Part shown: piece by piece, positions 4,604-55,883 of the stretch
Position numbering within the stretch: the stretch's first letter is position 1
Layout: each line of letters starts with the position of its first letter
NCBI GenBank assembly: GCA_001661245.1
Contig: KV454012.1
Span: forward strand, 340,147 to 404,146
Direction: 5' to 3'
Length of the DNA: 64,000 bases
Origin: Pachysolen tannophilus NRRL Y-2460
Lineage: Eukaryota
Made by a program: the position numbers and the translations under genes
Notes under the pieces: generated by a model
Told to the model about the DNA's origin: nothing
Database searches by the model: none
What the model saw: the letters and a program-made list of their open reading frames with translations, nothing else

Positions 4604-5072
4604 NNNNNNNNNNNNNNNNNNNNNNNNNNNNNNNNNNNNNNNNNNNNNNNNNNNNNNNNNNNNNNNNNNNNNNNNNNNNNNNNNNNNNNNNNNNNNNNNN
4701 NNNNNNNNNNNNNNNNNNNNNNNNNNNNNNNNNNNNNNNNNNNNNNNNNNNNNNNNNNNNNNNNNNNNNNNNNNNNNNNNNNNNNNNNNNNNNNTTTTTT
4801 TTTTTTTTTTTTTGATTTATTTTAATCATTTTTATACAGCTTTTTCTACTTTAACTACTGGTTGGGGTCTACAACAACAGGAGATTTTTTGAAAAAAAAA
4901 AAAAACAAAAAAAACAAAAAAAAAAATAAAAGAATAAATGTGGTACATCTATCTATATAATGAATAACCACATATATTTTATTTCGTCTTATATATTGGA
5001 TTATTTTGTACACTTAAAATCTGAATGATTTTCTTTTTTTCTCTCTTTTTTTTTTTTTTTTTTTTTTTTTTT
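4320..5072. repeat. Near-identical ~280 bp direct duplication on either side of an N-gap (about 4320-4603 and 4795-5072); probable unmerged contig overlap
   Basis: Same sequence GATTTATTTTAATCATTTTTATACAGC...CTGAATGATTTTC on both sides of the gap, differing by a few bases and homopolymer lengths. Confidence 0.85.
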
Positions 5073-8839: not shown

Positions 8840-9217
8840 TTTGATGTTTATGTGTATAGTTTAAATATGAAAGAATAATCATGTTTGGAAGCAAAAAATT
8901 CCTATATCCAAACTTCGATGCTGATGACAATAGCCGAAGAATAAGAAAAAATAAATAAATATGAAGCAAAGCCTAAAAAATGGAAATAAAATAAAATGAA
9001 AACAAGTAAAAGCAGGTGCCTAAATCTAAAGTCTAAAATGATTATAAAACTCTAAAGCTGGGCAATACGGAATGAATATGTTTTGACGGGAATTCTTTTT
9101 TNTTTTTTTTTTTTTTTTATTTTTTCTTATTTTTTCTATTTTCACAATTACGTTTTATTGATTTTTATTAAATTTTGCATTGATATAAATTCTGATCTTT
9201 CAATTTATTAAGAGATA

Positions 9218-9817: not shown

Positions 9818-11918
9818 GTTGTTGTTGTTATAGTCAGTTCTTCTAGCAATAGCAGATAAATTATATAGACTAACACTTGAAGAATTCATCCTATTGTAAT
9901 GCTGCTGCGGCTGTTGCTGCTGCTGCTGCTGATTTCCATGAATAAATGAGTGATAGTATCCATTGAAAACCTCATTTTTATAAGAATCTTGCCTTTGAGC
10001 CATTGGCAGTTGGAAATTATTATCACTCATACTCATTGAAAGACTGTTTGAGTGTCTTGACCTTCTCGAATTAGATCTAATAGGTGACAACCTTGGTCCT
10101 TTAGTTGGAGTACCAGAAGCATTATTTATGGAAAACAGTGAAATAGATCTCTGATGAGTGGGTCTCATTGCTCTCATTGGTGAACTATTAGCTATAATTG
10201 TCATTGGTGTTGCACTATTAGAGTTATTCGTCAATGTCATATTATTAAAGCTTGAATTAAGAGAAACTGAAGATAAAGTTCTCCTTGACTGTTTTCTCTT
10301 GATACCCATCACTTTGGACATAGCAACCAATGCATCATTCTCTGAGTTTGTTGAATTTACCAGCTTTGTGAGCGAAAATTCGTTTGGATATGCAATGTCA
10401 ATATACTCATTATTTTTTTCTTCTTCATCCTCGTTATCAGTAGCACTTAGGCTATAGGGAGTATTACCCAAACTACCCACATTCAGCAATGAGCTATTAC
10501 TTTTCAGTAACGAATGCAAAACAGGTGAATCTATCATTCTATATGGAGAGGATGATGTTAAAATTGGAGGAGATCCACTTCTAGCTCTATTGAGTTGTGG
10601 TGCCATTCTTAAAGAGCATAAATCTGAAGTTGAGGAAGATGAACTTATACTTTTTGATAAATTTGGTAGTAAGATGGCTCTACCAGAATCGTCAATTTTA
10701 ATACAAAGTCCCGAAACATTTGAACCGGATCTATTTCTGTTCAGATTGTTGTTATTTGAAGTATTGTTACTATTTATCAGCTGTGATGGAAGTACTATTG
10801 GACTTGGTAGTTGATGATGATCCATACTAACTGGGGTTAATACAGCAGGTGAAGAACTTGATTGAGTACGTAAAAGAGGATATCCGTTTGATCTTGATTG
10901 CTGAACAGTAGTTGTATAAGTTCTTTTCAAAGGAGATGATGAAGCAGTAGCGGGTCCACTATTTGTACCACCATTCAGGGTACCTGTTTTTGCTAAATCA
11001 TGAATACTATTAGTAATATATGCAATCATTGGACTAGGATGTACCAATGGGGCAGCAGAATCAATAGAATCATCAGTAGATACAATGGATTCTTTAATTT
11101 TTTCTGTCTTTGAATTAGTATTATTTCTTCTTAAAAATTTTGGAAATCTATTTGGTTTCTTGCCAGTTGGAGTAACAATATTATCATTTGGAATTGTAGT
11201 TGTAGTTGCAGCTGCAGTTGTAGTTGTATTTTGGTTTGAAGTCACCGGTTGTTGTTCAACAAATACAAATTCAACAGGATTCCCATTTTTATCAGTTTTA
11301 GGTCTTCTAGGTAAATGTCTTCTACCAAAATTTGTAGTTGAAACAACTCTTGCAGTATGTTGTTTTAATGAACAAGAAGAGTCATGTGAAGTACAAGTTT
11401 CATTTGTAGTATCATTTTCTAAATTACCAGCATTAGAAGATGCCTTTGACAGAATAAGATTTGATTGTTCTTCACAATCATCACTCTTATATTTTTTCAA
11501 TCTCCATACTTTTCTAGAATTAGAATTCGAATTGGGTATTGAAACTTGAAAAGTTTTAGTTGGTGTTGCTAATACTGGAGAAATTTGAGGTGAATTTTTT
11601 TTCTCCTTTAACGAACTACTATTATTAGCACTACCTCCGCCGCCCTCGTTATTAATAACTCCTCCACCTGATGTTGTTGTTGAGGTTGTTGTTGATGATA
11701 AAAAACTTATTGGAGATTTCAAAGATGATGACTGTTGATTCCCATTATTGCTTGTATCCACTTTTAAATGTGGTCGCCTTAAAGAATAAAAAAAAAATAA
11801 AAAATAAAGTAAAACATTGAAATCAGTTAGTAAATAAATCTTAAACGGTAAATCAAACAAACGGCGAAATCGAAAATCTAAAGCCGAACAAAGGAAATAC
11901 TTACCTTGACATCTTCAT
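9218..11918 (-). CDS. Ser/Asn/Thr-rich disordered protein of about 860 aa, possibly a Bck2 positional homologue; exons 11918-11905 and 11777-9218
   Basis: Long ORF lacking an early ATG; ATG AAG ATG TCA AG|GTAAGT donor at 11904, TACTAAC branch near 11830 and AAG acceptor at 11778 restore the frame (MKMSRRPHLKVDT). Identity is inferred only from composition, size and position next to CCA1. Confidence 0.7.
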
Positions 11919-17950: not shown

Positions 17951-19668
17951 TCTCTTCGATATAATAGACTGCAATCTGTCTCAGCCAACTTTCTAATTTC
18001 AAATTCTTTAGTATAATCCTAAAGATTATTTACTATATAAATATATAGAAATTTTTCACAATAAAGAAAGAAAAAGAGAGAGAAAAAAAATCTCACTCAA
18101 GAAAAAATTAAATCTATTTTTATGGGAAAACCGTTTTTTTAAAAAAAAAAATGAAGCCAAAAAAAAATAAAAAAAACGAATAGTCGAAAATATAAAATCA
18201 ATCTTTGATTTATTATGATTAGTTGATGGATTGATCGTTTTAAAAATTCATAAACAAGTATTTACTCTGTAGTTACTTATTTATTATTTTCTTTTTTTTT
18301 TTTTTCCTAAATTTTTAAATTTTTTTTTTTTTTTCCTTTTTTTTTTTATGTGAACCGACAACTACACAGGATGGAAAAAAAAGATTTTTTTTTCCCGACA
18401 ACAAAAGTTACAATGTGACAAAGCCTTTAATTGGGTCTTGTATCAATTTTCTTTCACCTACAACTGAGTATAAACTTGATATTTTTTTTTTTAAAAAAAA
18501 TTAATCCTGTTTTTCCACTGAAAAAAAAAAAAAATCATGAGAACAACTATATAACTAAAAAATCAAAAAAGAAAAAGAAGAAAAAAAAAAATTAATTGTC
18601 TATATAAACAGTAATTGCTTTACAACGTTAACATGCTGTGCTTTTAGTTTTTCAATTTTGTATCTTTCCGATGTAGTACACGAGAACTTGGGTTAAAGCC
18701 TGAAAGCCTTACCCCGCCCACGAACCGACCAAACCGATAAAAACAATCAAAATTTATCACCAGTAAGTAACATACAAACAACTAAATCCTTTTAAATTGT
18801 TCATATGTATACTAAAATAAAACTTTGATCAAATCAATAACTTTGTGAAAAGGGAAACAAAAAAACCCTCGCAGTGGAAAAAGTACCTGCATTTCGCTAA
18901 ATCAAATATGAAACCATACAGAGTAAAACAACAATCAAACCAAACCCAAACCCAAAAGAAAAACAAACGCAAACGTAACCAAACCACAAGAATAAAATTA
19001 CTATCTGAAACAAGACTTCATAAATAGAAAAATATTCTTTAAATCAAAAAAAAAAATCTTCAAATCAAATCCCTTAATAAACCAAAATTATTACGTACCC
19101 TTAAAAAGCGAAAAAAAAAAAAATTCTAAAATTTTTATAGAGATAAACAAAATCCTAATGTTAAAAAGGAAATTTATGATTAAAAAAACAAGTTTTTTGC
19201 GGGAGATTCAACCCTTTTTATACCATTTCTGCAATAAAAACTTACTGACACGTGGTATTTGACCCACTCACTAACACGCACTGACAGAAATATTAATCAA
19301 ACAATCATATATATATGATTATTCATATGGATATGGTCAAAGATTACTGAAATTTTACAATTCTGACAACAATTCATGTCCCATACTACTCTGGATTTAA
19401 TTACTGTAATCTATAAACAAAATTGTACAAAAATTGGGTATTGGATATCTTCCCGCCAATGAAATCGCTGTATTTACTAATCCCATAGTGACTGGTTTTA
19501 CACACTTCCCATATTATTTCTCATCACTACCAAGTTTGTATGGGAAAACAACACAAAATTCACAATTTTTAGGGGCTGTCGTGTGGTTGAAACACAAAAG
19601 TCTCAATTCGAAAAAAGAAACAAAAAAAAAATTTTCTTTTTTTTGTTTCTTTTTTCTAACACTCTCTG

Positions 19669-19678
19669 TGAAAAATTT
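19669..19678 (+). promoter_or_regulatory. RRPE ribosome-biogenesis element upstream of RLI1
   Basis: TGAAAAATTT followed by a (TA)n tract; fits an RLI1 promoter located left of the flipped segment. Confidence 0.55.
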
Positions 19679-19691
19679 CTCTCTACTGAAA

Positions 19692-19722
<31 letters not shown>

Positions 19723-19744
19723 TAAGATAATATTTGAACAACAA

Positions 19745-19780
19745 GGAAACAATAGCAATACGTGTATTTTTATCACTCAT
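19745..19780 (-). CDS. RLI1: Inverted N-terminal 12 codons of RLI1 (MSDKNTRIAIVS)
   Basis: Reverse complement reads AATAAAGA ATG AGT GAT AAA AAT ACA CGT ATT GCT ATT GTT TCC, the conserved ABCE1/Rli1 N-terminus missing from the + strand ORF. Confidence 0.93.
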
Positions 19781-19915
19781 TCTTTATTCTCTTGCCTTTC
19801 TATCGAAGAAACTTATTTAAAAAACAAAAAAAGACACCCCAACTTCTTATAATTACTAACTGCTTTTTTATTTTTCAATAATTACACAGTTCTTGCTTGT
19901 CCTATAAAAGTGATA

Positions 19916-21700
19916 ACAGATAAGTGTAAACCCAAAAAATGTCGTCAAGAATGTCGAAAGTCTTGTCCGGTTAATAAAACAGGTAAATTGTGTATTGAGG
20001 TGACACCAGCAGATAAGATTGCGTTTGTTTCTGAGGTATTATGTATTGGGTGTGGTATTTGTGTTAAAAAATGTCCATTTGATGCATTGACAATTATTAA
20101 TTTACCAACAAATTTGGATAGTGAAGTTACCCATAGATATTCTGCAAATTCTTTTAAATTACATAGGTTACCTACACCAAGACCGGGACAAGTGTTGGGG
20201 TTAGTTGGTAGTAATGGTATTGGTAAATCAACAGCATTAAAGATTTTAGCAGGAAAACAAAAACCAAATTTAGGAAGGTATGATGATCCACCAGATTGGG
20301 AAGTAATTTTAAAATATTTTAGAGGTTCAGAATTACAAAATTATTTTACCAAAATTTTGGAAGATAATATTAAAGCAATAATTAAACCACAATATGTTGA
20401 TAATATTCCAAGAGCTATAAAAGGTCCAGTAAATAAAGTTGGTGAATTATTGACAGCTAAATTAGAACGTAAAGAACTGGGAAAGAAAATCGTTGATGTC
20501 TTGGAATTAAAACCTGTTTGGAAAAGAGAAATTTCTAAATTATCAGGTGGTGAATTACAAAGATTTGCAATAGGTATGGCATGTGTTCAAGATGCTAATG
20601 TTTATATGTTTGATGAACCTTCATCATATCTTGATGTTAAACAACGTCTTAATGCTGCAGAAATTATTAGATCATTATTACAACCTTCAGTATATGTCAT
20701 TGTTGTTGAGCACGATTTATCTGTCTTGGATTATTTGTCAGATTTTGTTTGTATTTTATATGGTGTTCCATCTGTTTATGGTGTTGTTACATTACCATCT
20801 TCTGTAAGAGAAGGTATTAATATTTTCTTGGATGGTCATATACCAACTGAAAATTTAAGATTTAGACATGAATCTTTACAATTTAGACTTTCTGATGCAT
20901 CAGATAATTTAATTATTGATCAATCAAGATCATTTTCTTATTCATCAATGAAAAAAACTCAAGGTGATTTCCATTTAAAAATTGAAGCTGGTGAATTTAA
21001 TGATTCCGAAATCTTGGTTATGATGGGTGAAAATGGTACAGGAAAAACTACATTTTGTAGATTATTAGCAGGTGCCATAGAACCAGATGAAGGTACAAAA
21101 GCACCTAAATTAAACGTTTCAATGAAACCACAAAAAATTGCACCAAAATTCACAGGAACAGTTAGACAATTGTTTTTAAAAAGAATCAGAGCATCTTTCT
21201 TACATCCTCAATTTAATACCGATGTTCTTAAACCTTTAAGAATAGATGATATTATTGATCAAGAAGTTCAACATTTATCCGGTGGTGAATTACAAAGAGT
21301 TGCTGTTGTCATGGCATTAGGTGCCCAAGCAGATATTTATTTGATTGATGAACCTTCTGCTTATTTGGATTCTGAACAACGTATTATCTGTTCTAAAGTT
21401 ATCCGTAGATTTATTATTCATTCCAAGAAAACTGCTTTTGTTGTAGAACACGATTTCATCATGGCCACATATTTGGCTGATAAAGTCATAGTTTTCGAAG
21501 GTACACCTTCAAAAGATGCCACTGCAAGAAAACCAGAAAGTTTATTAACAGGTTGTAATAGATTTTTGAAAAACTTGAATGTTACTTTCAGAAGAGATCC
21601 AAATTCGTTTAGACCAAGAATCAATAAATTGGACTCTCAAATGGATAAAGAGCAGAAATTGGCAGGAAATTATTTCTTCTTGGACAACACATCATTATGA
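19916..21700 (+). CDS. RLI1: ABCE1 Fe-S ABC ATPase (ribosome recycling), body lacking its start codon in this orientation
   Basis: [12 protein letters not shown]...[13 protein letters not shown]e-S domain, two NBDs ([26 protein letters not shown] twice), FRPRINK. Confidence 0.97.
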
Positions 21701-21924: not shown

Positions 21925-22062
21925 ATAGTATAAAGTAAAAATTTCGGAAAAATAAATAATTTTTAAACAAAATTGTTTGGTAGTGTGCAGAAGCACAATT
22001 AAATGTAATCACATAGACAGCCCTCAAATTATTTAAAAATTAGAAACAAAAGAGGCTTTATA

Positions 22063-22140
<78 letters not shown>
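22063..22140 (+). repeat. Perfect (AAT)26 microsatellite upstream of PAB1
   Basis: 78 nt uninterrupted AAT run. Confidence 0.95.
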
Positions 22141-22586
22141 TATAAATGGTAATCAGTAATGATAAAATGATAATAAAGTAAACTAAAATACAAGAAACTT
22201 TTCTTTCTTCTTTTTATAGAAACCCCACTATTAAGCAAATGCAACTTTCAAGTAAAATAAAATAAAATAAAATAAAATAAAAAAAAAAAATTAAAAAGAA
22301 AAAAAAATAAAAAAAAACGCCGTCAAAATCACAAAAAAAAAATCTATCTTTTTCTTTCATTGCTTTCTCATTCACAGTTGCATTAAAACTCATTTTAATT
22401 AAACATATAATAATATATATTCCAATTATAGTTTTATTTGAATTCAATATATTCTCATATATATTACTCAAATTAATAACTTTTATATATATACTTATAT
22501 AAAAATTAAAAAAAAAAAAAAAAATAAAGAAAAAAAACTTTTAAAAAAAATTAGAAAAACCTAATAAAAAAATATATAATATAATA

Positions 22587-27455: not shown

Positions 27456-27924
27456 TTTTCTTCATACTAATTCTCTTTTTCTTTTTACTTTCTTGGGGAT
27501 TTGAAGTAGTGCAGCGCTAACTCAAAAAAACTAAAAAGAGAAATTTAAGCGTGTGGCTGCAGAATGAAATAAGATAGAGATGAGGACAGAGATTTAAAAA
27601 AAAAAAAGTAATAGCAAACATATAAACATATAATAAATATATATACAAAGAAGAATTAGACGCTGTTTATAAAAAAGTTACTTTTATAAATTATTGTTTT
27701 AAAATAGTATTGAAACTATTTTAATAAAAGACAAGGTGAATAGATAAATTGAATTATATTGAGAAAAAGAGAGAAAAAAAATTTTGTTTTTGTTTTTTAA
27801 ATTTTTCGAAAAGGGGTGGTAATAGGGATATGCATAGTTTTAAGGTAATATTAATAAAGTATTAAGATTAAAAGAAAAAAAAAAAAAAAAAAAAAAAAAA
27901 GAGAGTGGATTTGAGGATTTGAAA

Positions 27925-30900
27925 ATGGGTGACCATAAGGTGGATGATACAATTCGAATACCTAGAAGATCGTTTACTGCTTTTAGATTAACGTATTGTA
28001 CTTCAAGACAAATTTCGAAAAACTCAGAAGTTATCTTGTTGGGGCCAATTCCAAATATATGGGTTACAAGTAGGTCTTCAGTGGTTTTAAAATCAATGGC
28101 TCGGTTGTCTCATAGAGAGAAAGTTAAAGATGTAATTTATAGGAAATGCAGATCAGTTGATGAGACTCTCAAGGAATGGGAGGCTTTTGATCTGACAAGT
28201 ACAGAAGAAGAAGAGGAAGAAGAAGAGCTGCGGCGCGAGAGAGAGGTTCGCTCTACAATCAGTCCTCTGGTGCCTTTGAAAAAATTACCAGAATTAACTA
28301 TCCAAGGTTTTGAGAAAGCATCAGATAGTAGAAATGGTCATAGGCAAATTACTACAGGAGGCTCAACAAGTTCAGAAATTAACAATTCTTATACAACAAC
28401 TACTGCAACAGAAAATTCAGATTCTGTAGGTGTATATGCCAATCATAGTGTCATAAATAATGTTCTTCAACCTTTATTTAGATATGATTCAAAAATATCA
28501 AAAAATACACACTCAAGGGGTAAAAAATTTAATGAAAGAAGAAGCATTGATGAAAATATCAATAGTCTGGAATATAAATCAAAAATAATAGGTTGGAATA
28601 ACGATATTGAAGATTTATCAATACTAAGAGATTCTTTTAATTTAGAAAATGAAAATGAAAACGAAAATACTATAAAATTAACTACCTTACCACAAAATAA
28701 TAATATAATTAATAATGATCAATATCGAATGCTTTCTCAAACTGGTGGACTTTCAAGTAGTACTCTTATTCATGATGATAAAGAAAAGAATAAAAAAATA
28801 AAATCATCCAATGTTGAACCAAATGGTTTCAACACTCAGCGGAACCTTAAATCATTAAATAATACTTCTCCTAAAACAGAAATTATAGACCCTGGTCCTA
28901 AATCCATTAATTCACAAATTTTAAGTCAAACAAAAAGGAATAACTCACTGCCAATATCAAGAAGGGTAGAACCCCAAATTAAAGAAAAGTTGAATATAGA
29001 TCAACAGCCGCTAATTTCTTCCATATATGCCAATATCCACGCACGACAGTTGGCTAATGAAAGTAAATATTCTGAAAAATCAAGTAATCTTCAATCAGGT
29101 ATATCCAATAACAATACTGAAAACTATGCAACAAAGTCGTTATCTTTATCATATAAAAGTGCAAAAGGTGATTTACTGCTAACTGATAGCAGCAAAACTC
29201 ATGATCACGATCATGATCATGATCCAAATGTTGAAACTGTAAACTCTTCACTCAATAACGAAGATTCAATTTTGCTATTCCAAAAAAAGCTTCCATTGAG
29301 GCAAAACATTTATGATGACCAAACTAATCAGGAATCTGAATTTTCTAAAAACTTACCTCAGGTATTGAACGGTGATAATAAAAAAACACAAACGAAAAGT
29401 CTGTCTCCTAGTTTTGAAGATAAAGCATCCTTAAATGCTTTCCTGACAACTTATTCAGTTCCTGGTGCCAGTTCATTATCTTCTAATTCTAATTCTTTGA
29501 GCTTAACAGATGATTCTCAAAAGCAAAAAAACAATCAAGTTCCAAAAACTTTACAACATTCCGAAGAAACTACAAAAAACGCAAGCTTTTTCAAAGTATC
29601 ATTTGCTAACCCTGAAAAGAAAAGGACAAAAGGTTCAACGATCAGTAAACTTGGTGCTAATGGTGTTCTGATTAAAAAAATAAGACCCAAGCCTTTGAAC
29701 GCAGAGCATCGATCATTGGTCTATCCAGTAGAGGCAAAACATTATCAAATATTGAAAAGATTAGAAAAAAGAGCTTTCAGCGTTAAACATAAATTCACAA
29801 AAGAGGTTGAAAACTTGGAGAAAAAGAGACGTTTGAAACTGAAGCTAAAGAATTTTCAAAATGGATCAATTATAAAAGTGGAAAAAATGCTTGTTCTAGT
29901 TAAAACTTCTCTTTCTTCTATATGTCATACCGTAGCGGTTTCTGGCCTAATGGAGAACGAGGGGTGCGACACCAGAGTTGTTGAGAGATGGAAGGAATAT
30001 ATTGTGGTAGTAAGATCAACAGGTGACTTGGAAAATCCACTTTACATTCAATTTTACAGAAACAGGAAGATTCCAGAGAAACAGACATCACAGAAGAATG
30101 AATTTGATTTTAAATTAAATATTCATACTAGTATCGTTAAATTTTATAGCTCACTTGACAAGACAATTTCCATCACTATGAAAAATTCTGAGAATGGTAG
30201 CTATATGTTTTATATATTGAGAACAAGTACTCAGTCTTCAGCAATACGATGGCATTCATTTTTTCAGGAAATTTTGGGTTACAAAGTGAAATCAAAGCTT
30301 AGGTTGGATCTCCCTGAGCTTGATGTATCTATGAATATAAGTATACCTTACTGTGATTTTGAAAGGATTATCAAAGAGGGTCAGAGGAGAAAAGAAGAGT
30401 TTGAAATATTAGTCAAAAATAAAGGATACAAAGTTGAACAAATAGCATTTTCAGATTACTTGATTAATATCATTGCGAAAAACTTGAAAGAGTGCAACTT
30501 GTATCATGAAAAGATAAAATTTTTGGAGTATCAGGATCATCTATTCTCTTTTGCATGGAAACATTATGATCGATTAGAATGGATATTTGGCGAAAATCAA
30601 AATTTACTATATGGAAAATGGTCAATGGGTTCAACGCATACGTTGGAATTTAGGTCAGCCAAACATTATCCAACAACTGTTTTAACAACTGAAGGAAGAC
30701 ATGTATCTGAGCCTATCCCAATAGAAGGATTTTTAGGCAGATTAACTTCAAGATCTGGAAAAGATATTTCTTCCTTTCTTAAAAAACCAATTTTCAAATT
30801 AAAGTACTTCTACACTAACGATAATATGTTAATGTTCTGTAAACCTTCAAGAGCCATACCCCCGTTGCCTGAATCAATCGATTTTGAATCTTGTTTTCAG

Positions 30901-32118
30901 AATGGCGAGAGACTCAAGGAAGTTATTAATTCGATGCCAGCAATTTATCAGAAAAACCCATTCAAGTTGGATGATAACGATCATATTGAGTGGCTAAAGC
31001 CAGGCATGAGTAAAGCTGAGTTTATCCAAAAGGACAGGCATGCGTTACAAGAAATGGAACGAAAAATATCTCTGGTTACCAGAGCAGATGGTTTAATTGA
31101 TATGTGTCAAATAATACAGGTTAAATCAGTTCCAGTTAGTGAAATCAAAAATATAATCAAAACTGCTAGTAGTTTACTTTGGACTTCCTCGCCTACTCAT
31201 GTTAATGACATGAATTTAGTGGATGCTTGTTTTGATATAATATTGAATGATGGTGGAATTATTAGGTTACAGGCTCCTTCAAGATCTATTAAATATGAAT
31301 GGATCGCCAAGTTAATTCAAATGAGAGATTATTGGATTCAAAGGAAAAAAGATGATTTATCGAGATTAATGAGAGTCAGGCAAAAAAACATGGAGATTTT
31401 ACATGCTAGCGAATATGTTGAGTCTACAATTTCTCATTCTACACCTAAGTGGGAGACTTCAAGAGGTATTGCAGACTCCTATATATACAACGTCAGTGGT
31501 ACGGCATTATCAAGATGTGTCGTGATGAGTGGAATCTTATATCAAAAACCTAAAAAGCATTCAGTTTTTACAAAATACTTTGTCGTATTATGTCCCGGGT
31601 TCATAATTTTATACAGTATGTTCAAAAGAAATCACTCAGGTTTTGTTAAAAGTACTACTGATTATAGACATTATTTAACAATTCCAGTCCATGAAAGCTA
31701 TGTGTATTCAGGGATGAATACCACACTAGACTTACTAGATAGAAATGAAGAGTTTGATGAGATCCACCCGGGGCACTATTCGTTGCCAAGAATTTATCCT
31801 GATTTCTGGAAATCTTCAGAAGAAGAATCGGAAAGATGTTTTACCTTGTGGTTCGGTACCAAAAGAGCTATTGCAGGCAAAAAAGAGCATATAAATAGGA
31901 GGACTAATGATAGTCACGCTAGCTTACAAAATTCACAAATAAATTCCTCTCGAAATCCTGGGTTAATCAGAATGGTAAATAGATTAGGAGTCACTGGTAG
32001 AAGCATTGTGTTTATGGCAAGGTCAAGACAAGAAAGAGACTTGTGGGTTACAAGGTTACTCTCCCAGATTGAAAGGTTTGCGGTTTTAGATTATGATGAG
32101 ATCAAGTTGGTTCATTAG
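27925..32118 (+). CDS. SPO71: Prospore membrane PH-domain protein
   Basis: IPRRSFTAFRL N-terminus, EKMLVLVK...DTRVVERWKEY, WKHYDRLEW, EPIPIEGFL, SGILYQKPKKHS, C-terminal FMARSRQERDLWV. Confidence 0.9.
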   Translation: MGDHKVDDTIRIPRRSFTAFRLTYCTSRQISKNSEVILLGPIPNIWVTSRSSVVLKSMARLSHREKVKDVIYRKCRSVDETLKEWEAFDLTSTEEEEEEEELRREREVRSTISPLVPLKKLPELTIQGFEKASDSRNGHRQITTGGSTSSEINNSYTTTTATENSDSVGVYANHSVINNVLQPLFRYDSKISKNTHSRGKKFNERRSIDENINSLEYKSKIIGWNNDIEDLSILRDSFNLENENENENTIKLTTLPQNNNIINNDQYRMLSQTGGLSSSTLIHDDKEKNKKIKSSNVEPNGFNTQRNLKSLNNTSPKTEIIDPGPKSINSQILSQTKRNNSLPISRRVEPQIKEKLNIDQQPLISSIYANIHARQLANESKYSEKSSNLQSGISNNNTENYATKSLSLSYKSAKGDLLLTDSSKTHDHDHDHDPNVETVNSSLNNEDSILLFQKKLPLRQNIYDDQTNQESEFSKNLPQVLNGDNKKTQTKSLSPSFEDKASLNAFLTTYSVPGASSLSSNSNSLSLTDDSQKQKNNQVPKTLQHSEETTKNASFFKVSFANPEKKRTKGSTISKLGANGVLIKKIRPKPLNAEHRSLVYPVEAKHYQILKRLEKRAFSVKHKFTKEVENLEKKRRLKLKLKNFQNGSIIKVEKMLVLVKTSLSSICHTVAVSGLMENEGCDTRVVERWKEYIVVVRSTGDLENPLYIQFYRNRKIPEKQTSQKNEFDFKLNIHTSIVKFYSSLDKTISITMKNSENGSYMFYILRTSTQSSAIRWHSFFQEILGYKVKSKLRLDLPELDVSMNISIPYCDFERIIKEGQRRKEEFEILVKNKGYKVEQIAFSDYLINIIAKNLKECNLYHEKIKFLEYQDHLFSFAWKHYDRLEWIFGENQNLLYGKWSMGSTHTLEFRSAKHYPTTVLTTEGRHVSEPIPIEGFLGRLTSRSGKDISSFLKKPIFKLKYFYTNDNMLMFCKPSRAIPPLPESIDFESCFQNGERLKEVINSMPAIYQKNPFKLDDNDHIEWLKPGMSKAEFIQKDRHALQEMERKISLVTRADGLIDMCQIIQVKSVPVSEIKNIIKTASSLLWTSSPTHVNDMNLVDACFDIILNDGGIIRLQAPSRSIKYEWIAKLIQMRDYWIQRKKDDLSRLMRVRQKNMEILHASEYVESTISHSTPKWETSRGIADSYIYNVSGTALSRCVVMSGILYQKPKKHSVFTKYFVVLCPGFIILYSMFKRNHSGFVKSTTDYRHYLTIPVHESYVYSGMNTTLDLLDRNEEFDEIHPGHYSLPRIYPDFWKSSEEESERCFTLWFGTKRAIAGKKEHINRRTNDSHASLQNSQINSSRNPGLIRMVNRLGVTGRSIVFMARSRQERDLWVTRLLSQIERFAVLDYDEIKLVH

Positions 32119-32146
32119 ATTTGTTTTTGAATATTTCCCATGTTTT

Positions 32147-33538
32147 ATTGTTTCACTTCAAACACCAAAACCTTCGGTCTTAAAAATAGAAGCATTAAAT
32201 GCAGATGACCAGTATTTAAGCAGCGATAATGCATCTGTTGTGGAAAAATGGGGGGCCGCATTGAGCGATTTGGAAATGTTGTTTCCGAACGAATTCCTAA
32301 CTGGAACAATTGAATTATCTGACATTGGAGATGAAGATTGTTCTGCCTCGACTATACAACGAAATTCATTGGCAACTACTATAGGAAGAGATGAAAATTT
32401 CCAGATTTCGGATGTTAATATGCTGAGTTTGAGTGCTAATTTATTAAACATCTCGACAAGATCTTCTTATTTCCCACGGAAATCGCAAAACGCCATTATC
32501 CTTATTCTAAATCAATATAACATGTCACAGAATTCAGTAACAATTTTCAAAAATATAATTAGAGCTTTAGCATTGATTGAGTTAGAAATTTTTTTTGTGT
32601 CGACAGAAAAAGTATCATTATCGCTTGAATCAGGTTATAAATCAAAGGCAGTTATCTTGAAGAATAACTGTGAACAGGAACTTATTGATGCGTTGGATAA
32701 AGGGAAGGATAACAGTTCTTTTTCAAACCAAGAAGGAAACTTATCAACGGTAATAAATGAATATTTGCTGGAATGTAAATATCCATTAGAGCAGATTGCA
32801 ACTGTGGTTTTATCAAATTTATCGCTAAACTTGAATAATTTTCCAACCATAAAGAATATATTTATTGAAATTGGCGTTGTAAATAATAAGAATAGCCCAC
32901 TTGAAATATATTCGTACCCTCAAGATAGGACCACGGTCAAGTTAAATTCTTGGGATGATGTGATGGAAAGAATATGCGGTGAATTAGATTTGTCTTTTGA
33001 TCGAATTAATGATAATGATCAACAACAAGAAAACAGAAACTCTATCAAAAGTATTTTTGGTTTTGGTTTTGGTTTTGGTACTGGTACTGGTAAGAATATC
33101 TCTCCCAGGCAATCCGAAGATAGTTCACTTAAAAAACAGAACCTAGGATTACCAATTACTGATGATTTCAGTAAGCATGATTCGGAAAGTATTTCTTCAG
33201 AGAGTGACTCAGATGCTGAAGTAATTGACGAATTATTAGAAAATTTTGATACCAGCGATATTGATGCAGATTCAACTACATACAAGGATACCTATCCCAA
33301 CACTAACAAACCAGTTGACTTGTTTTGTGAACTGATTAATTCAGAAGATAAAAAAGCGAATGCGATTGAAAACATTGATACATCTGCCTTAAATCCAAGA
33401 ATCTGGTCTGAAAATTCAAAATTGAATTACAAAATTGAAAGTAGGCAGAGAATGGACAATAGTTCAGGTAGATGGAGTTCGCTTTTTTCAGATATTGACC
33501 GTGCTCTATATGAAACTTCTAAATCCCCATATGAGTAA
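32147..33538 (+). CDS. STE5: Inverted C-terminal half of the Ste5-like scaffold (end of PH domain, VWA-like region, acidic tail); left boundary approximate
   Basis: Begins mid-domain: TPKPSVLKI...YLSSDNASVVEKWGAALSD...FP, resembling the last strands and Trp-containing helix of a PH domain. The nominal ATG at 32093 lies inside SPO71 and leaves no promoter space. Confidence 0.75.
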   Translation: MVSLQTPKPSVLKIEALNADDQYLSSDNASVVEKWGAALSDLEMLFPNEFLTGTIELSDIGDEDCSASTIQRNSLATTIGRDENFQISDVNMLSLSANLLNISTRSSYFPRKSQNAIILILNQYNMSQNSVTIFKNIIRALALIELEIFFVSTEKVSLSLESGYKSKAVILKNNCEQELIDALDKGKDNSSFSNQEGNLSTVINEYLLECKYPLEQIATVVLSNLSLNLNNFPTIKNIFIEIGVVNNKNSPLEIYSYPQDRTTVKLNSWDDVMERICGELDLSFDRINDNDQQQENRNSIKSIFGFGFGFGTGTGKNISPRQSEDSSLKKQNLGLPITDDFSKHDSESISSESDSDAEVIDELLENFDTSDIDADSTTYKDTYPNTNKPVDLFCELINSEDKKANAIENIDTSALNPRIWSENSKLNYKIESRQRMDNSSGRWSSLFSDIDRALYETSKSPYE

Positions 33539-45605: not shown

Positions 45606-48018
45606 ATGAAGTAAGTGGTTTTTGTAGATGTATAGCAACTTGTATTAGGAATTTTTTGGCTTACTGACATTATTAATTTATAGATTTTTCATAGATGATT
45701 TACCAGTTTTATTCCCATACCCAAGAATATATCCAGAGCAATATGCTTATATGTCGGATATAAAGAAGACTTTGGATGTTGGGGGGAATTGTATATTAGA
45801 AATGCCTTCGGGTACTGGTAAGACTATTTCGTTGTTATGTCTTACTGTAGCATATCAGATGTTTTATCCTGAACATAGAAAAATCATATATTGTTCTCGT
45901 ACTATGTCGGAGATTGAAAAAGCATTGATTGAATTGAATTCTTTAATGGAATATAGAACGAAAGAATTAGGTTATAAAGAAGACTTTAGAGGTTTAGGTT
46001 TAACCTCACGTAAAAATTTATGTTTGCATCCTGTTGTATCAAAGGAAAGAAAAGGTGTTGTTGTTGATGAAAAATGTAGAAGAATGACAAATGGACAAAA
46101 TAAAGCTAAAAGAGAAGCTGGAGAAGAAACTAATATTGATTTATGTTCATTTCATGAGAAATTATATGAAAAAGATCCTCATAATTTAATTCCTCCTGGA
46201 GTTTACTCGTTTGATTCTTTGGTGAATTATTGTCAAAAGGAAGGAACTTGTCCATATTTTACCGTTCGTCGTATGATGCCGCTTTGTAATATCATTATTT
46301 ATTCTTATCATTATTTATTGGATCCTAAAATTGCTCAAAGAGTTTCAAAAGAATTATCAAAGGATAGTATAGTAATTTTTGACGAGTCACATAATATTGA
46401 TAATGTTTGTATTGAATCTTTATCTATAGATTTAACAGATGATATCTTGAAAAAAGCTTCTAGAGGTGCTAATAGTTTAAGTAAAAAAATAGAAGAAGTG
46501 AAAAGAACAGATAGTAAGAAATTACAAGATGAATATGAAAATTTGGTTAAGGGATTAAGAGAAGCAGAAATTGCTAGGGATGAAGAATTATTTTTAGCAA
46601 ATCCTGTCTTACCAGAAGATTTATTGGATGAAGCTATTCCTGGAAATATAAGAAGAGCTGAACATTTTGTTTCGTTTTTGAAAAGGTTTATTGAATATTT
46701 GAAGATGAGAATGAAAGTTTTACATGTTATATCAGAAACTCCAACATCTTTTTTACAGCATTTAAAACAATTAACATTTATTGAAAGGAAACCTTTAAGA
46801 TTTTGTTCGGAAAGATTAGCATTATTAGTTCGAACATTGGAAGTTGAAGATATTGAAGATTTTATGTCTTTAAAAGATATTGCAACATTTGCTACATTAG
46901 TTTCTACGTATGAGACTGGATTTCAATTAATTTTGGAACCTTTTGAAACGGAGAATGCTACTGTTCCAAATCCTATTTTACATTTTGCATGTTTGGATGC
47001 TTCTATTGCGATGAAACCTGTCTTTGATAGATTTTCATCAGTTATTATTACTTCTGGTACGATATCTCCTTTGGATATGTATCCTAAGATGCTTAATTTT
47101 GAAACTGTTATTCAAGAATCTTATACAATGACATTAGCAAGAAGATCTTTTTTACCAATGATTGTTACAAAAGGTTCAGATCAAGTTTCTATTTCTTCAC
47201 GTTTTGAAATCAGAAATGATCCAAGTGTTGTTAGGAATTATGGTACTTTATTGATAGAATTTGCCAAGATTACTCCTGATGGAATGGTTGTATTTTTCCC
47301 ATCATATCTTTATATGGAAAGTATTATATCTGCATGGCAAAACATGGGTATATTGGATGAAGTTTGGAAATATAAATTAATTTTAGTTGAGACACCGGAT
47401 GCACAAGAAACCGCTAGAGCTTTGGAGACATATAGAACTGCATGTTCTAATGGGAGAGGGGCAGTGTTGTTATCAGTTGCTCGTGGTAAAGTCTCGGAAG
47501 GTATTGATTTTGATCATCATTATGGAAGAACTGTATTAATGATTGGTATTCCTTTCCAATATACGGAATCAAGAATTTTAAAAGCTAGATTAGAATTTTT
47601 AAGAGATCAATATCAAATCAGAGAGAATGATTTTTTATCCTTTGATGCAATGAGACATGCTGCTCAATGTTTAGGTAGAGTTTTAAGAGGTAAAGATGAT
47701 TATGGTGTGATGGTATTAGCAGATAGAAGATTTGCTAGAAAAAAAAATCAACTACCAAAATGGATAGCCCAGGCCTTATCCGATGCAGATACAAACTTAT
47801 CCACCGATATGGCCATTGCCAGTGCCAAGAAGTTCTTGAGAACTATGGCCCAACCTACCGATCCAAAAGATCAAGAAGGTATATCTGTTTGGGATATTGA
47901 ACAATTAAAAAATTATCAAAAGGGACAGAGAATGCTTGATTTCGAGGATAACGAGTTTGAAGAAGATGAGGATATGGTCTTGACAAAAGAAGAAGAAGAA
48001 GCATTAGCTAAATTATAG
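45606..48018 (+). CDS. RAD3: TFIIH/NER DNA helicase XPD; exons 45606-45610 and 45684-48018
   Basis: ATG AA|GTAAGT...TACTGAC...TAG|A TTT restores MKFFIDDLPVLFPYPRIYPEQY; EMPSGTGKT, Fe-S cysteines, VARGKVSEGIDF. Confidence 0.97.
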
Positions 48019-52063: not shown

Positions 52064-52517
52064 AAAATTTCCTAATTACGTCCTTTCATAATCTTGCAGA
52101 AAATAGTTGTTCTCTTGGGGGAAAAAATAAACGAAATTTTTATAGTTTTCCCGCCTATTTTTTCATTTTTTTTAATATAATGCCCAATGTAAAATTATTC
52201 AATTTAAACCTGATTGCCGACTTCCTGATAATAAAGACAAATAATTCTTGCGTTACATGTAATAATTTTTTATGCATTTTCTTTTTTTTTTTTTTTGCGC
52301 CCTGACTTATTCAGATCTCTGTTTGGACTTGAGCTATCTCTGCTTCAACCCAAATAAGATAAATAGAGTTCCCAGATTTGAAATTTAAGATCTCCTGAAT
52401 ATATAATTACTTTGGAAGTCTTGTCTTTGTCTTTTATTTTTTTTTTTCTTTTGGAGTCTGGCTTACTCAAAGAAATAGAATAAATATAAAAAGTTAGACT
52501 AAGAAAGAACTAAGAAT

Positions 52518-54308
52518 ATGTCAGCAGCATTGGCAGATTTGGTGAGTTCTTCTTCAAGAAGAATCTATGATGAAAAACATGAAAATTCATCAAGTCAAGT
52601 CAAAGATGACACAGTAACGGTGAATATTGGTGAAGTTGAGTCTCTTGATCAATTCCAGAAAGAAAATAAAACTCAGAAAGGGTTGGAACAAAGACATATC
52701 CAATTGTTAGCTTTAGGTGGTTGTATTGGTACTGTAAGTATGAATCCAAATAATATATAAATTTTTTTTCCAAAAAAAATTACTAATAAAAAAAACAAAT
52801 TTGTAAAATTATAGGGTCTTTTCGTTGGTTCTGGATCCGCTCTTTCAACATGTGGACCTGCTGCACTTTTAATAAGTTATATGATTATGTCCTTTTTTGT
52901 TTGGTCAGTTATGCAACAGATAACTGAAATGGTAACATGGTTACCTTTACCTGGAAGATCAACAATGTCTTACTTAGCTGCAAGATATTGTGATGATTCG
53001 TTATCTTTTTGTGTTGGTTGGAATTATTACTATGCTTTTTCAATGATAGCTCCAGCAGAAGTTTCTGCTGCGGCTTTTGTCATACAATATTGGAGTTCGC
53101 TTAATGTTGCAGTTTGGATTAGTATAATGTTAGTTCTTATGTTAGCTTTAAATTTTGCTCCTGTTAAATATTTTGGTGAATCTGAATTTTGGATTGCAAC
53201 TATCAAATTATTTGCAGTCACTGGTTTAATTATTGTTGGTATTGTTATCTTTTTTGGAGGTGCTCCAAAATCTGATGGTGTTTTAGGTTTCCATTATTGG
53301 AAACATCCAGGTGCTTACGTTGAACATTTAGCTGACGGCAACACAGGTAAATTCTTGGCATGCTGGACTGCTATCATTAAATCAGGGTTTTCATTTGTCT
53401 TATCACCGGAGTTAATTACTACAGCAATTCTGGAATCGAAAAATCCAAGATATTCATTACCAAAAGCATCAAATAGATTTATTTACAGATTAATGTTTTT
53501 CTACATTGGAGGAACTTTAACTATTGGTGTTATTTGTGCTTCTAATGATAGTAGATTAATGAGCGCAATTGATTCTGGTTCATCTAGTGCTGCTGCAAGT
53601 CCATTTGTTATTGGTATTCAAAATTTTGGTATTCCAGTCTTAAACCATATTATCAACGCTTGTATCTTAACATCTGCTTTTAGCTGTGGTAACTCATTTA
53701 TCTATTCTTCAAGTAGAATCTTGTATTCAATGGCATTAGAAGGTAAACATGCTCCTAGGTTTTTTGCGAAGACAAATAGGCATGGTGTTCCATATATTGC
53801 AGTTATAATTGGAGGTGGTTGGATCTCATTAGCTTATTTAGAAGTTTCAGATTCTTCCTCTGTTGTATTTACTTGGTTATCAAATATTGCTACAATTTCT
53901 GGATTTTTTGGTTGGATTTTTTCATCAATTATCTATTTAAGATTTAGAAAAGCAATGATTTTCCATGGAACATACGATAAAAATCCTTTCAAGGCAAATC
54001 TACAACCTTATTGTGCTTATTTAACCCTTGGATTTTTCTCTATTTTGGCCTTAACTAATGGTTATGCCGTTTTTATTAAAGGTAATTGGAGTACAAGTGA
54101 TTTTTTCGCTGCTTATGTTACAGTTGGATTTGTATTTGTCTTATATTTTGGTCACAAATTATATACAAGAAATTGGAAAAGATGGTACATACCTGTTGAA
54201 GAAATCGATGTTTTCACCGGCTTGGACGAAGTAGAAGCTGAAGCAGCTTCCTACAAGAGAAGAGACCCAAAAAATATCATTGAAAAGTTTTGGTTTTGGT
54301 TGGTTTAA
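52518..54308 (+). CDS. Yeast amino acid transporter (YAT/APC family, Put4/Agp2-like); exons 52518-52733 and 52815-54308
   Basis: LEQRHIQLLALGGCIGT|GLFVGSG across a GTAAGT...TACTAAT...TAG intron; FGESEFW, LGFHYWKHPG, SPFVI, SSRILYSMA. Confidence 0.93.
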
Positions 54309-54344: not shown

Positions 54345-55883
54345 AAAAAAACAAAAAAAAGAAAGCTTCAGCCTACAGTGTATTTCTAGAGTTGAGTTCC
54401 TTTTACTTTTTATCTTTCAGTTCTTTCTTCTTTTCTTTTTCTTTTTATTTACTTTTCTTTTCACTATCTTATACACACAATATTTTCAATTTATTTCAAT
54501 CTCTTTTCTTTTACTTTGATATTACGAGTTTAATAACTAGCTGATTAGTACAACATTTTATTGGAACATTATACATACATACATACATACCGTAGTAGTA
54601 GTAATAATAATAGTAATATAGTAATAGTACATAGTCGTGTGGCATGTGCTCATGATCACTATAGGAAATCCTTCGTTTTCAACGCTTTAACTTTAACGGA
54701 AAGAGATCATCATCAACAAAAGAAAAACAGTTGATAAGACAATCAATTGAAATTGAATGAAGTCAAACAAGTAATAACAAAATAGAAAAAAAAAAAAAAC
54801 TGAGAAAGAAGAGAGAAAGGAAATAATTAGAAAACAATATTAGTACTCTATACCCGTATCATCATCTCAATAATCAAACATACAGTACTTATAAAATAAA
54901 ATATTTCATCAGAAAAATAAATAGATTCCCCATGATTGATAACCTTACTATAGCCCTGCAGTTACCCTGAAATCCAACTGTTTTTCTTGGGTGAAGAGAT
55001 CAAAAACATTAGAAAAACGAAAAACAAAAAAAAAAAAAAAAANNNNNNNNNNNNNNNNNNNNNNNNNNNNNNNNNNNNNNNNNNNNNNNNNNNNNNNNNN
55101 NNNNNNNNNNNNNNNNNNNNNNNNNNNNNNNNNNNNNNNNNNNNNNNNNNNNNNNNNNNNNNNNNNNNNNNNNNNNNNNNNNNNNNNAAAAAAACAAAAA
55201 AAGAAAGCTTCAGCCTACAGTGTATTTCTAGAGTTGAGTTCCTTTTTACTTTTTATCTTTCAGTTCTTTCTTCTTTTCTTTTTCTTTTATTTACTTTTCT
55301 TTTCACTATCTTATACACACAATATTTTCAATTTATTTCAATCTCTTTTCTTTTACTTTGATATTACGAGTTTAATAACTAGCTGATTAGTACAACATTT
55401 TATTGGAACATTATACATACATACATACATACCGTAGTAGTAGTAATAATAATAGTAATAATAGTAATAGTAACAATAGTCGTGTGCATGTGCTCATGAT
55501 CACTAATTAGGAAATCCTTCGTTTTCAACGCTTTAACTTTAACGGAAAGAGATCATCATCAACAAAAGAAAAACAGTTGATAAGACAATCAATTGAAATT
55601 GAATGAAGTCAAACAAGTAATAACAAAATAGAAAAAAAAAAACTGAGAAAGAAGAGAGAAAGGAAATAATTAGAAAACAATATTAGTACTCTATACCCGT
55701 ATCATCATCTCAATAATCAAACATACAGTACTTATAAAATAAAATATTTCATCAGAAAAATAAATAGATTCCCCATGATTGATAACCTTACTATAGCCCT
55801 GCAGTTACCCTGAAATCCAACTGTTTTTCTTGGGTGAAGAGATCAAAAACATTAGAAAAACGAAAAACAAAAAAAAAAAAAAA
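54345..55883. repeat. Near-identical ~700 bp direct duplication flanking an N-gap (about 54345-55042 and 55188-55883); probable assembly overlap
   Basis: GAAAGCTTCAGCCTACAGTG...CATTAGAAAAACGAAAAAC present on both sides of the gap with small indels. Confidence 0.88.

Follow-up and report, generated by a model that had tools for sequence, protein, structure and literature searches.

The window, by which we mean the whole 64-kb stretch of DNA analysed here, carries most of the RLI1 gene on its plus strand, while the beginning of the gene lies upstream on the opposite strand. Codons 13–606 and the stop codon of RLI1/ABCE1 occupy positions 19916..21700 (+), as judged from the ORF list, the homologues and Pfam; read from the ACA at 19916, the frame continues for 594 residues and then reaches its stop. 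According to the ORF list and a motif scan, the enclosing stop-to-stop frame on the plus strand (19853..21700) is devoid of methionine before frame residue 242, at window position 20576. This earliest in-frame methionine corresponds to residue 233 of the protein and falls downstream of the Fe-S domain. With the start lost and the next methionine at residue 233, the form of the gene written in the window would therefore lose the whole Fe-S domain.

The 12 missing RLI1 codons are found at 19745..19780 on the minus strand, where positions 19780..19745 translate to MSDKNTRIAIVS and the ATG is located at 19780-19778; this assignment is based on the translation, a six-frame scan and the comparison with relatives. 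Upstream of the ATG, the minus strand reads ...AATAAAGA, and the adjoining 135 nt (19781..19915, minus strand) would represent, judging from the sequence, the 5' leader and proximal promoter of RLI1, flipped along with the start codon. The initial annotation had described a plus-strand RLI1 frame without a start codon and its first 12 codons on the minus strand at 19780-19745, and both are indeed present at these positions. A search in all six frames of the whole 64-kb window for the core K-N/S-x-R-I-A-I/V-V gave no occurrence outside minus 19780..19745. The match of the 12 residues to the conserved start of the protein lies far beyond chance.

For the identification of the gene, a homologue search was carried out in which the 8000 candidates sharing the most words with the query were scored and 120 were listed. 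Among the matches listed, the 594-residue frame is 86–90% identical to RLI1/ABCE1 of Ogataea, Komagataella, Kuraishia and [Candida] boidinii, the best of those listed being P0002, a Logan yeast protein with 90% identity, and it shows 82–83% identity to RLI1 of Saccharomyces cerevisiae and S. mikatae. P0002 was also considered as the organism's own intact protein, an assignment which was rejected because it is only 90% identical. P0122, the sole other member of the P0002 cluster, is also 90% identical, and we therefore attribute both to a related species and not to this one. In the RLI1 frame, two stretches were matched by PF00005 (ABC_tran, E 1.4e-36), corresponding to two ABC-type nucleotide-binding domains, and the N-terminal Fe-S domain was matched by PF04068 (Fer4_RLI, E 4.1e-8) and PF00037 (Fer4, E 6.4e-7). 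As the plus-strand frame lacks the first 12 residues, the match to the Fer4_RLI profile starts only at position 9. In its domains, and once intact also in its 606 aa and its conserved N-terminus, the protein resembles Rli1/ABCE1 as known from S. cerevisiae (YDR091C) and the yeast orthologues; it differs from them in having codons 1–12 and the leader on the opposite strand, a difference seen in the window alone and not in the public contigs. Rli1/ABCE1 is essential in yeast, and a haploid with the flipped form alone should be inviable. In the available text of two papers, Rli1 is presented as an essential Fe-S protein (PMC3442406, PMC4523923).

When the segment 19745-19915 was reverse-complemented in place by a script, a single open frame of 606 aa was obtained, consisting of 12 plus 594 residues. 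The initial annotation had proposed that this reversal would restore the frame with nothing lost or gained, which is exactly what was observed. A length of 606 aa is shared by five of the seven relatives that were fetched, including the closest one, the remaining two having 607 and 608 aa. The fetched relatives share these first 12 residues exactly or nearly so, with x-D-K/R-C-K-P-K-K-C coming next, and the 12 residues are also the most frequent N-terminus among the stored homologues (21 proteins). Aligned with P0002, the best relative, the protein encoded after reversal is identical at 548 of 606 positions, with residues 1–25 identical throughout. Full-length colinearity with the orthologues (about 606 aa with an MS-x-KN-x-RIAIVS start) is not found in the window as written, whereas it is found both in the contig orientation and after the scripted reversal. 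The homologues, the Pfam matches, the translation and the scripted reversal all confirm the earlier identification of the gene as RLI1 and of the flipped piece as the carrier of its leader, its ATG and codons 1–12.

Upstream of RLI1, a motif scan yielded a GATGAG core at 19520-19525 (minus strand) and A/T-rich motifs at 19627-19635 and 19671-19678 in the plus-strand region, which we take, from their consensus sequences, to be elements of the GATGAG and RRPE-like type. A TA tract follows at about 19694-19724 in the plus-strand region, with TA palindromes covering 19690-19725. This upstream region (19520-19724) lies to the left of the flipped piece and is not affected by the flip. After the scripted reversal, the RLI1 ATG comes to lie at coordinate 19880, with the RRPE-like motifs about 200 nt upstream of it. 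The statement of the initial annotation that the restored start would be placed downstream of an RRPE and a TA tract is in agreement with this position, the function of the motifs being presumed from the consensus. In the same region, positions 19607-19659 form an A-rich/T-rich inverted repeat of 23 nt with 96% complementarity and a 7-nt spacer, which has low complexity and probably represents a nucleosome-excluding poly(dA:dT) promoter tract.

The other genes of the window were surveyed by scanning 22 of its 24 ORFs with 150 aa or more; the other two (11004..11549 on the plus strand and 46335..46922 on the minus strand) run antisense within larger ORFs. A Pfam family was matched in 17 of the 22, and the neighbours are ordinary yeast chromosomal genes, including those for a CHD1-like helicase, a PAB1-like RRM protein, a synaptobrevin, an SPO71-like protein, pyruvate dehydrogenase E1, BRR2, RAD3 and exportin-T. 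Further broken genes that might hint at systematic flips were not seen in the 22 scanned ORFs. An amino-acid permease appears split into two parts (52503-52760 and 52815-54308, both on the plus strand): the first exon ends in ...LALGGCIGT, and the main ORF takes up with GLFVGSG... about 55–70 nt further on in another frame. This split, and with it the apparently short N-terminus of the permease, is likely to reflect a short intron and not a break. The SPO71-like ORF (27844-32118, plus strand, 1424 aa) is followed by an ORF of 482 aa without a Pfam family (32090-33538, plus strand), which overlaps it by 29 nt in a different frame; the two could be separate genes or one frameshifted gene. In the interval between RLI1 and the PAB1-like gene, positions 22058-22152 hold a long tract of AAT/ATT trinucleotides, whose translation is poly-Asn, poly-Ile, poly-Leu or poly-Tyr according to the frame.

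Public sequencing runs containing the stretch numbered five, from two studies, with 85–86% of the sampled words present; none of these runs is listed as RNA. Logan contigs from four of these runs (X1, X2, X3 and X5) were compared with the window over 19300-20400. Runs X1 to X3 come from one sample and study, which may or may not be the sample behind this record, and X5 comes from a second sample and study with another organism label. In every run, the contigs showed 0 differences from the window in the flanks 19300-19609 and 19916-20400, and they therefore derive from the same or a near-identical genome. These comparisons were made with contigs and not with raw reads. The contigs establish the intact form as present and dominant; since rare variants are lost from contigs, a rare flipped form could go unseen. 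The contig depths of about 44 versus about 133 are depths of contig words and not copy numbers.

At both ends of the segment the contigs depart from the window. For the first junction, all four runs possess a contig linking 19745 directly with 19916, the two lying on opposite strands and 0 letters being assignable to both sides. This contig is about 2 kb in length (256 nt in X5), and its shorter side comprises 80–111 letters. In record 5 of X2, for example, positions 14-101 correspond to minus 19745-19832, and from position 102 onwards the record corresponds to plus 19916-20400. Read in the direction of the gene, the join leads from the ATG to codon 12 and then directly into codon 13. For the second junction, a contig of about 150 nt covering 19819-19915 extends 48–49 letters beyond this stretch in 4 of 4 runs, and the 30 letters printed of this extension past 19915 match uniquely to minus 19715-19744 (0 matches in 100 shuffles). 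Contig cover is missing from 19610-19744, where repeats were skipped, so that the left junction is read from these loose-end letters alone. Both junctions of the intact orientation are present in both samples. In contrast, a colinear crossing of 19744|19745 or 19915|19916 in the orientation of the window was found in none of the 16 contig records of the four runs. Relative to the public contigs, the 171-bp segment 19745..19915 is thus reverse-complemented, as seen from the contig joins in all four runs. The initial annotation had allowed an ambiguity of about 3 nt at the junctions, which does not hold, since the contigs place them exactly at 19744|19745 and 19915|19916 with 0 shared letters. 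It had also suggested that reads be counted by orientation, and that a flip be regarded as an artefact if all of them were colinear and intact; when this count was made on contigs, all four runs from the two samples gave the colinear, intact form, which points to an artefact on its own reasoning.

Inside the segment, the contigs and the window differ in the length of homopolymers. In the X3 contig, the A-run that follows 19825 exceeds that of the window by 11 nt, loose A-runs are present at 19819/19832 in the other runs, and one extra T follows 19863 in 4 of 4 runs when compared with the window. These length differences (19819-19833 and 19863-19869) stem either from a consensus error in the record or from polymorphism in run length. 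The points at which the record departs from the reads cluster in the low-complexity leader, as would be expected of a draft assembly with a poorly resolved patch at this place. Such a patch does not, however, explain a flip that is exact to the base, and an edit made after assembly would look alike. Elsewhere, the window contains N runs at 1147-1340 (194 bases), 4604-4794 (191) and 55043-55187 (145) as well as single Ns at 9102 and 24520, which could mark scaffold gaps and uncertain base calls in a draft assembly, or else withheld stretches. Being AT-rich (30.3% G+C) and interspersed with N runs, the window looks like a draft scaffold.

An intron could in principle account for a frame without a start codon. 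The plus strand contains a perfect TACTAAC at 19854-19860, 55 nt upstream of codon 13, which might serve as a branch point with the first exon coming from elsewhere; this motif is expected only about 0.03 times per 171 nt on both strands, and AG dinucleotides follow it. However, a GTATGT or GTAAGT 5' splice site is absent from either strand of 19300-20000, a plus-strand copy of the N-terminal peptide is absent across the window, and the contigs give a continuous, unspliced gene of 606 codons in which the TACTAAC is antisense within the leader. As there is neither a 5' splice site nor a plus-strand first exon and the contig gene is unspliced, the intron was rejected and the TACTAAC was judged to be coincidental; we consider the probability of unusual splicing to be close to nil. 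The flip might instead be a fixed, strain-specific inversion in the assembled isolate, with RLI1 function supplied from a second copy, from an intact allele in a heterozygote or through an unusual start. This would take the sequence of the window as it is given, and the two homopolymer differences inside the segment would be compatible with a slightly different isolate as the source. Nevertheless, the intact form is present in two independent samples with flanks 100% identical to the window, and the Fe-S domain would go, as no in-frame ATG precedes residue 233, in a protein that the available text of PMC3442406 describes as essential. In addition, natural inversions seldom break and rejoin exactly, with nothing lost or gained and no microhomology. 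A fixed inversion is, all in all, very improbable.

Site-specific invertible switches are represented in bacteria by the fimS or Hin type and in yeast by the 2-micron FLP/FRT inversion. The locus is similar to these systems only outwardly, in that a short segment with a gene start stands in the 'wrong' orientation, and unlike them it has no flanking inverted repeats, no recombinase in the scanned ORFs of the window and only one orientation in the public contigs. In detail, exact inverted matches within ±25 nt of the junctions reach 5 nt at most, in accordance with the earlier observation that inverted repeats are missing there. In a control of 2000 random position pairs with the same spacing the mean was 5.7 nt and 88% of the pairs reached at least 5 nt, so that the flanking matches are not above chance. 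None of the 25 longest inverted pairs of 19400-20300 brackets 19745/19915, and no Pfam family of recombinases, integrases or transposases was matched in the 22 scanned ORFs (of 24 in the window with 150 aa or more), 5 of which had no family at all. One boundary moreover separates codons 12 and 13 of a gene that is conserved and essential, which would be an implausible site for a regulated switch. An invertible ON/OFF element, or a heterozygous or mosaic minor form caught by the assembly, has one point in its favour, namely that contigs can miss rare variants; the contigs of all four runs (two samples) contain intact junctions only, and neither flipped junction occurs in any of them. We regard such an element or minor form as very remote. 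The initial annotation had left the choice between a misassembled or altered sequence and a real invertible or heterozygous element; the former is borne out by the intact contigs of 4 of 4 runs, while the latter is not, neither flipped junction having been seen. More generally, it is highly doubtful that some cells, or the assembled isolate, truly contain the flipped form as a repeat-independent 171-bp inversion, tolerated in a heterozygous state or as a minor population and perhaps acting as a reversible OFF allele of RLI1. If this were true, the flip would part an essential gene of translation and ribosome recycling from its start codon, which would be a remarkable route of silencing. Taken by themselves, the contig data leave a small chance for a rare or strain-specific inversion.

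Very probably, the flip is not biology but a record artefact that arose through either misassembly or alteration of the sequence. The read-derived contigs contradict the record at the two anomalous junctions and agree with it in the flanks. An exact flip in place, with no inverted repeats, no microhomology and neither gain nor loss of bases, leaves the signature of a computational or assembly operation and not that of recombination between repeats. As in local misassemblies and inversion errors of draft genomes, the segment disagrees with contigs from two samples and is an exact reverse complement; the wrong homopolymer lengths within this stretch and the N runs in other parts of the window belong to the same picture. 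Unlike in a typical assembler error, the junctions are clean to the base, and no gap or N stands beside the flipped piece. A clean, gapless flip in place is not common among assembler errors, which counts against one, and it would equally suit a deliberate or accidental edit.

We hold with high confidence that the predominant genome of the organism carries RLI1 in the intact orientation. The RLI1 gene of the organism would then be an ordinary one, with 606 uninterrupted codons and with promoter, leader and ATG colinear on the plus strand. In the record, bases 19745-19915 would have been swapped for their own exact reverse complement, be it through a local misassembly or finishing error in the draft or through a change made to the sequence after assembly. 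There would accordingly be no switch, and the apparent OFF orientation would not be a state of the cell. The finding serves as a quality flag, since RLI1 would be annotated from this record as a pseudogene or as N-terminally truncated. If the record were left unflagged, the loss or rewiring of an essential gene would be wrongly inferred for an organism whose contigs show the gene to be normal.
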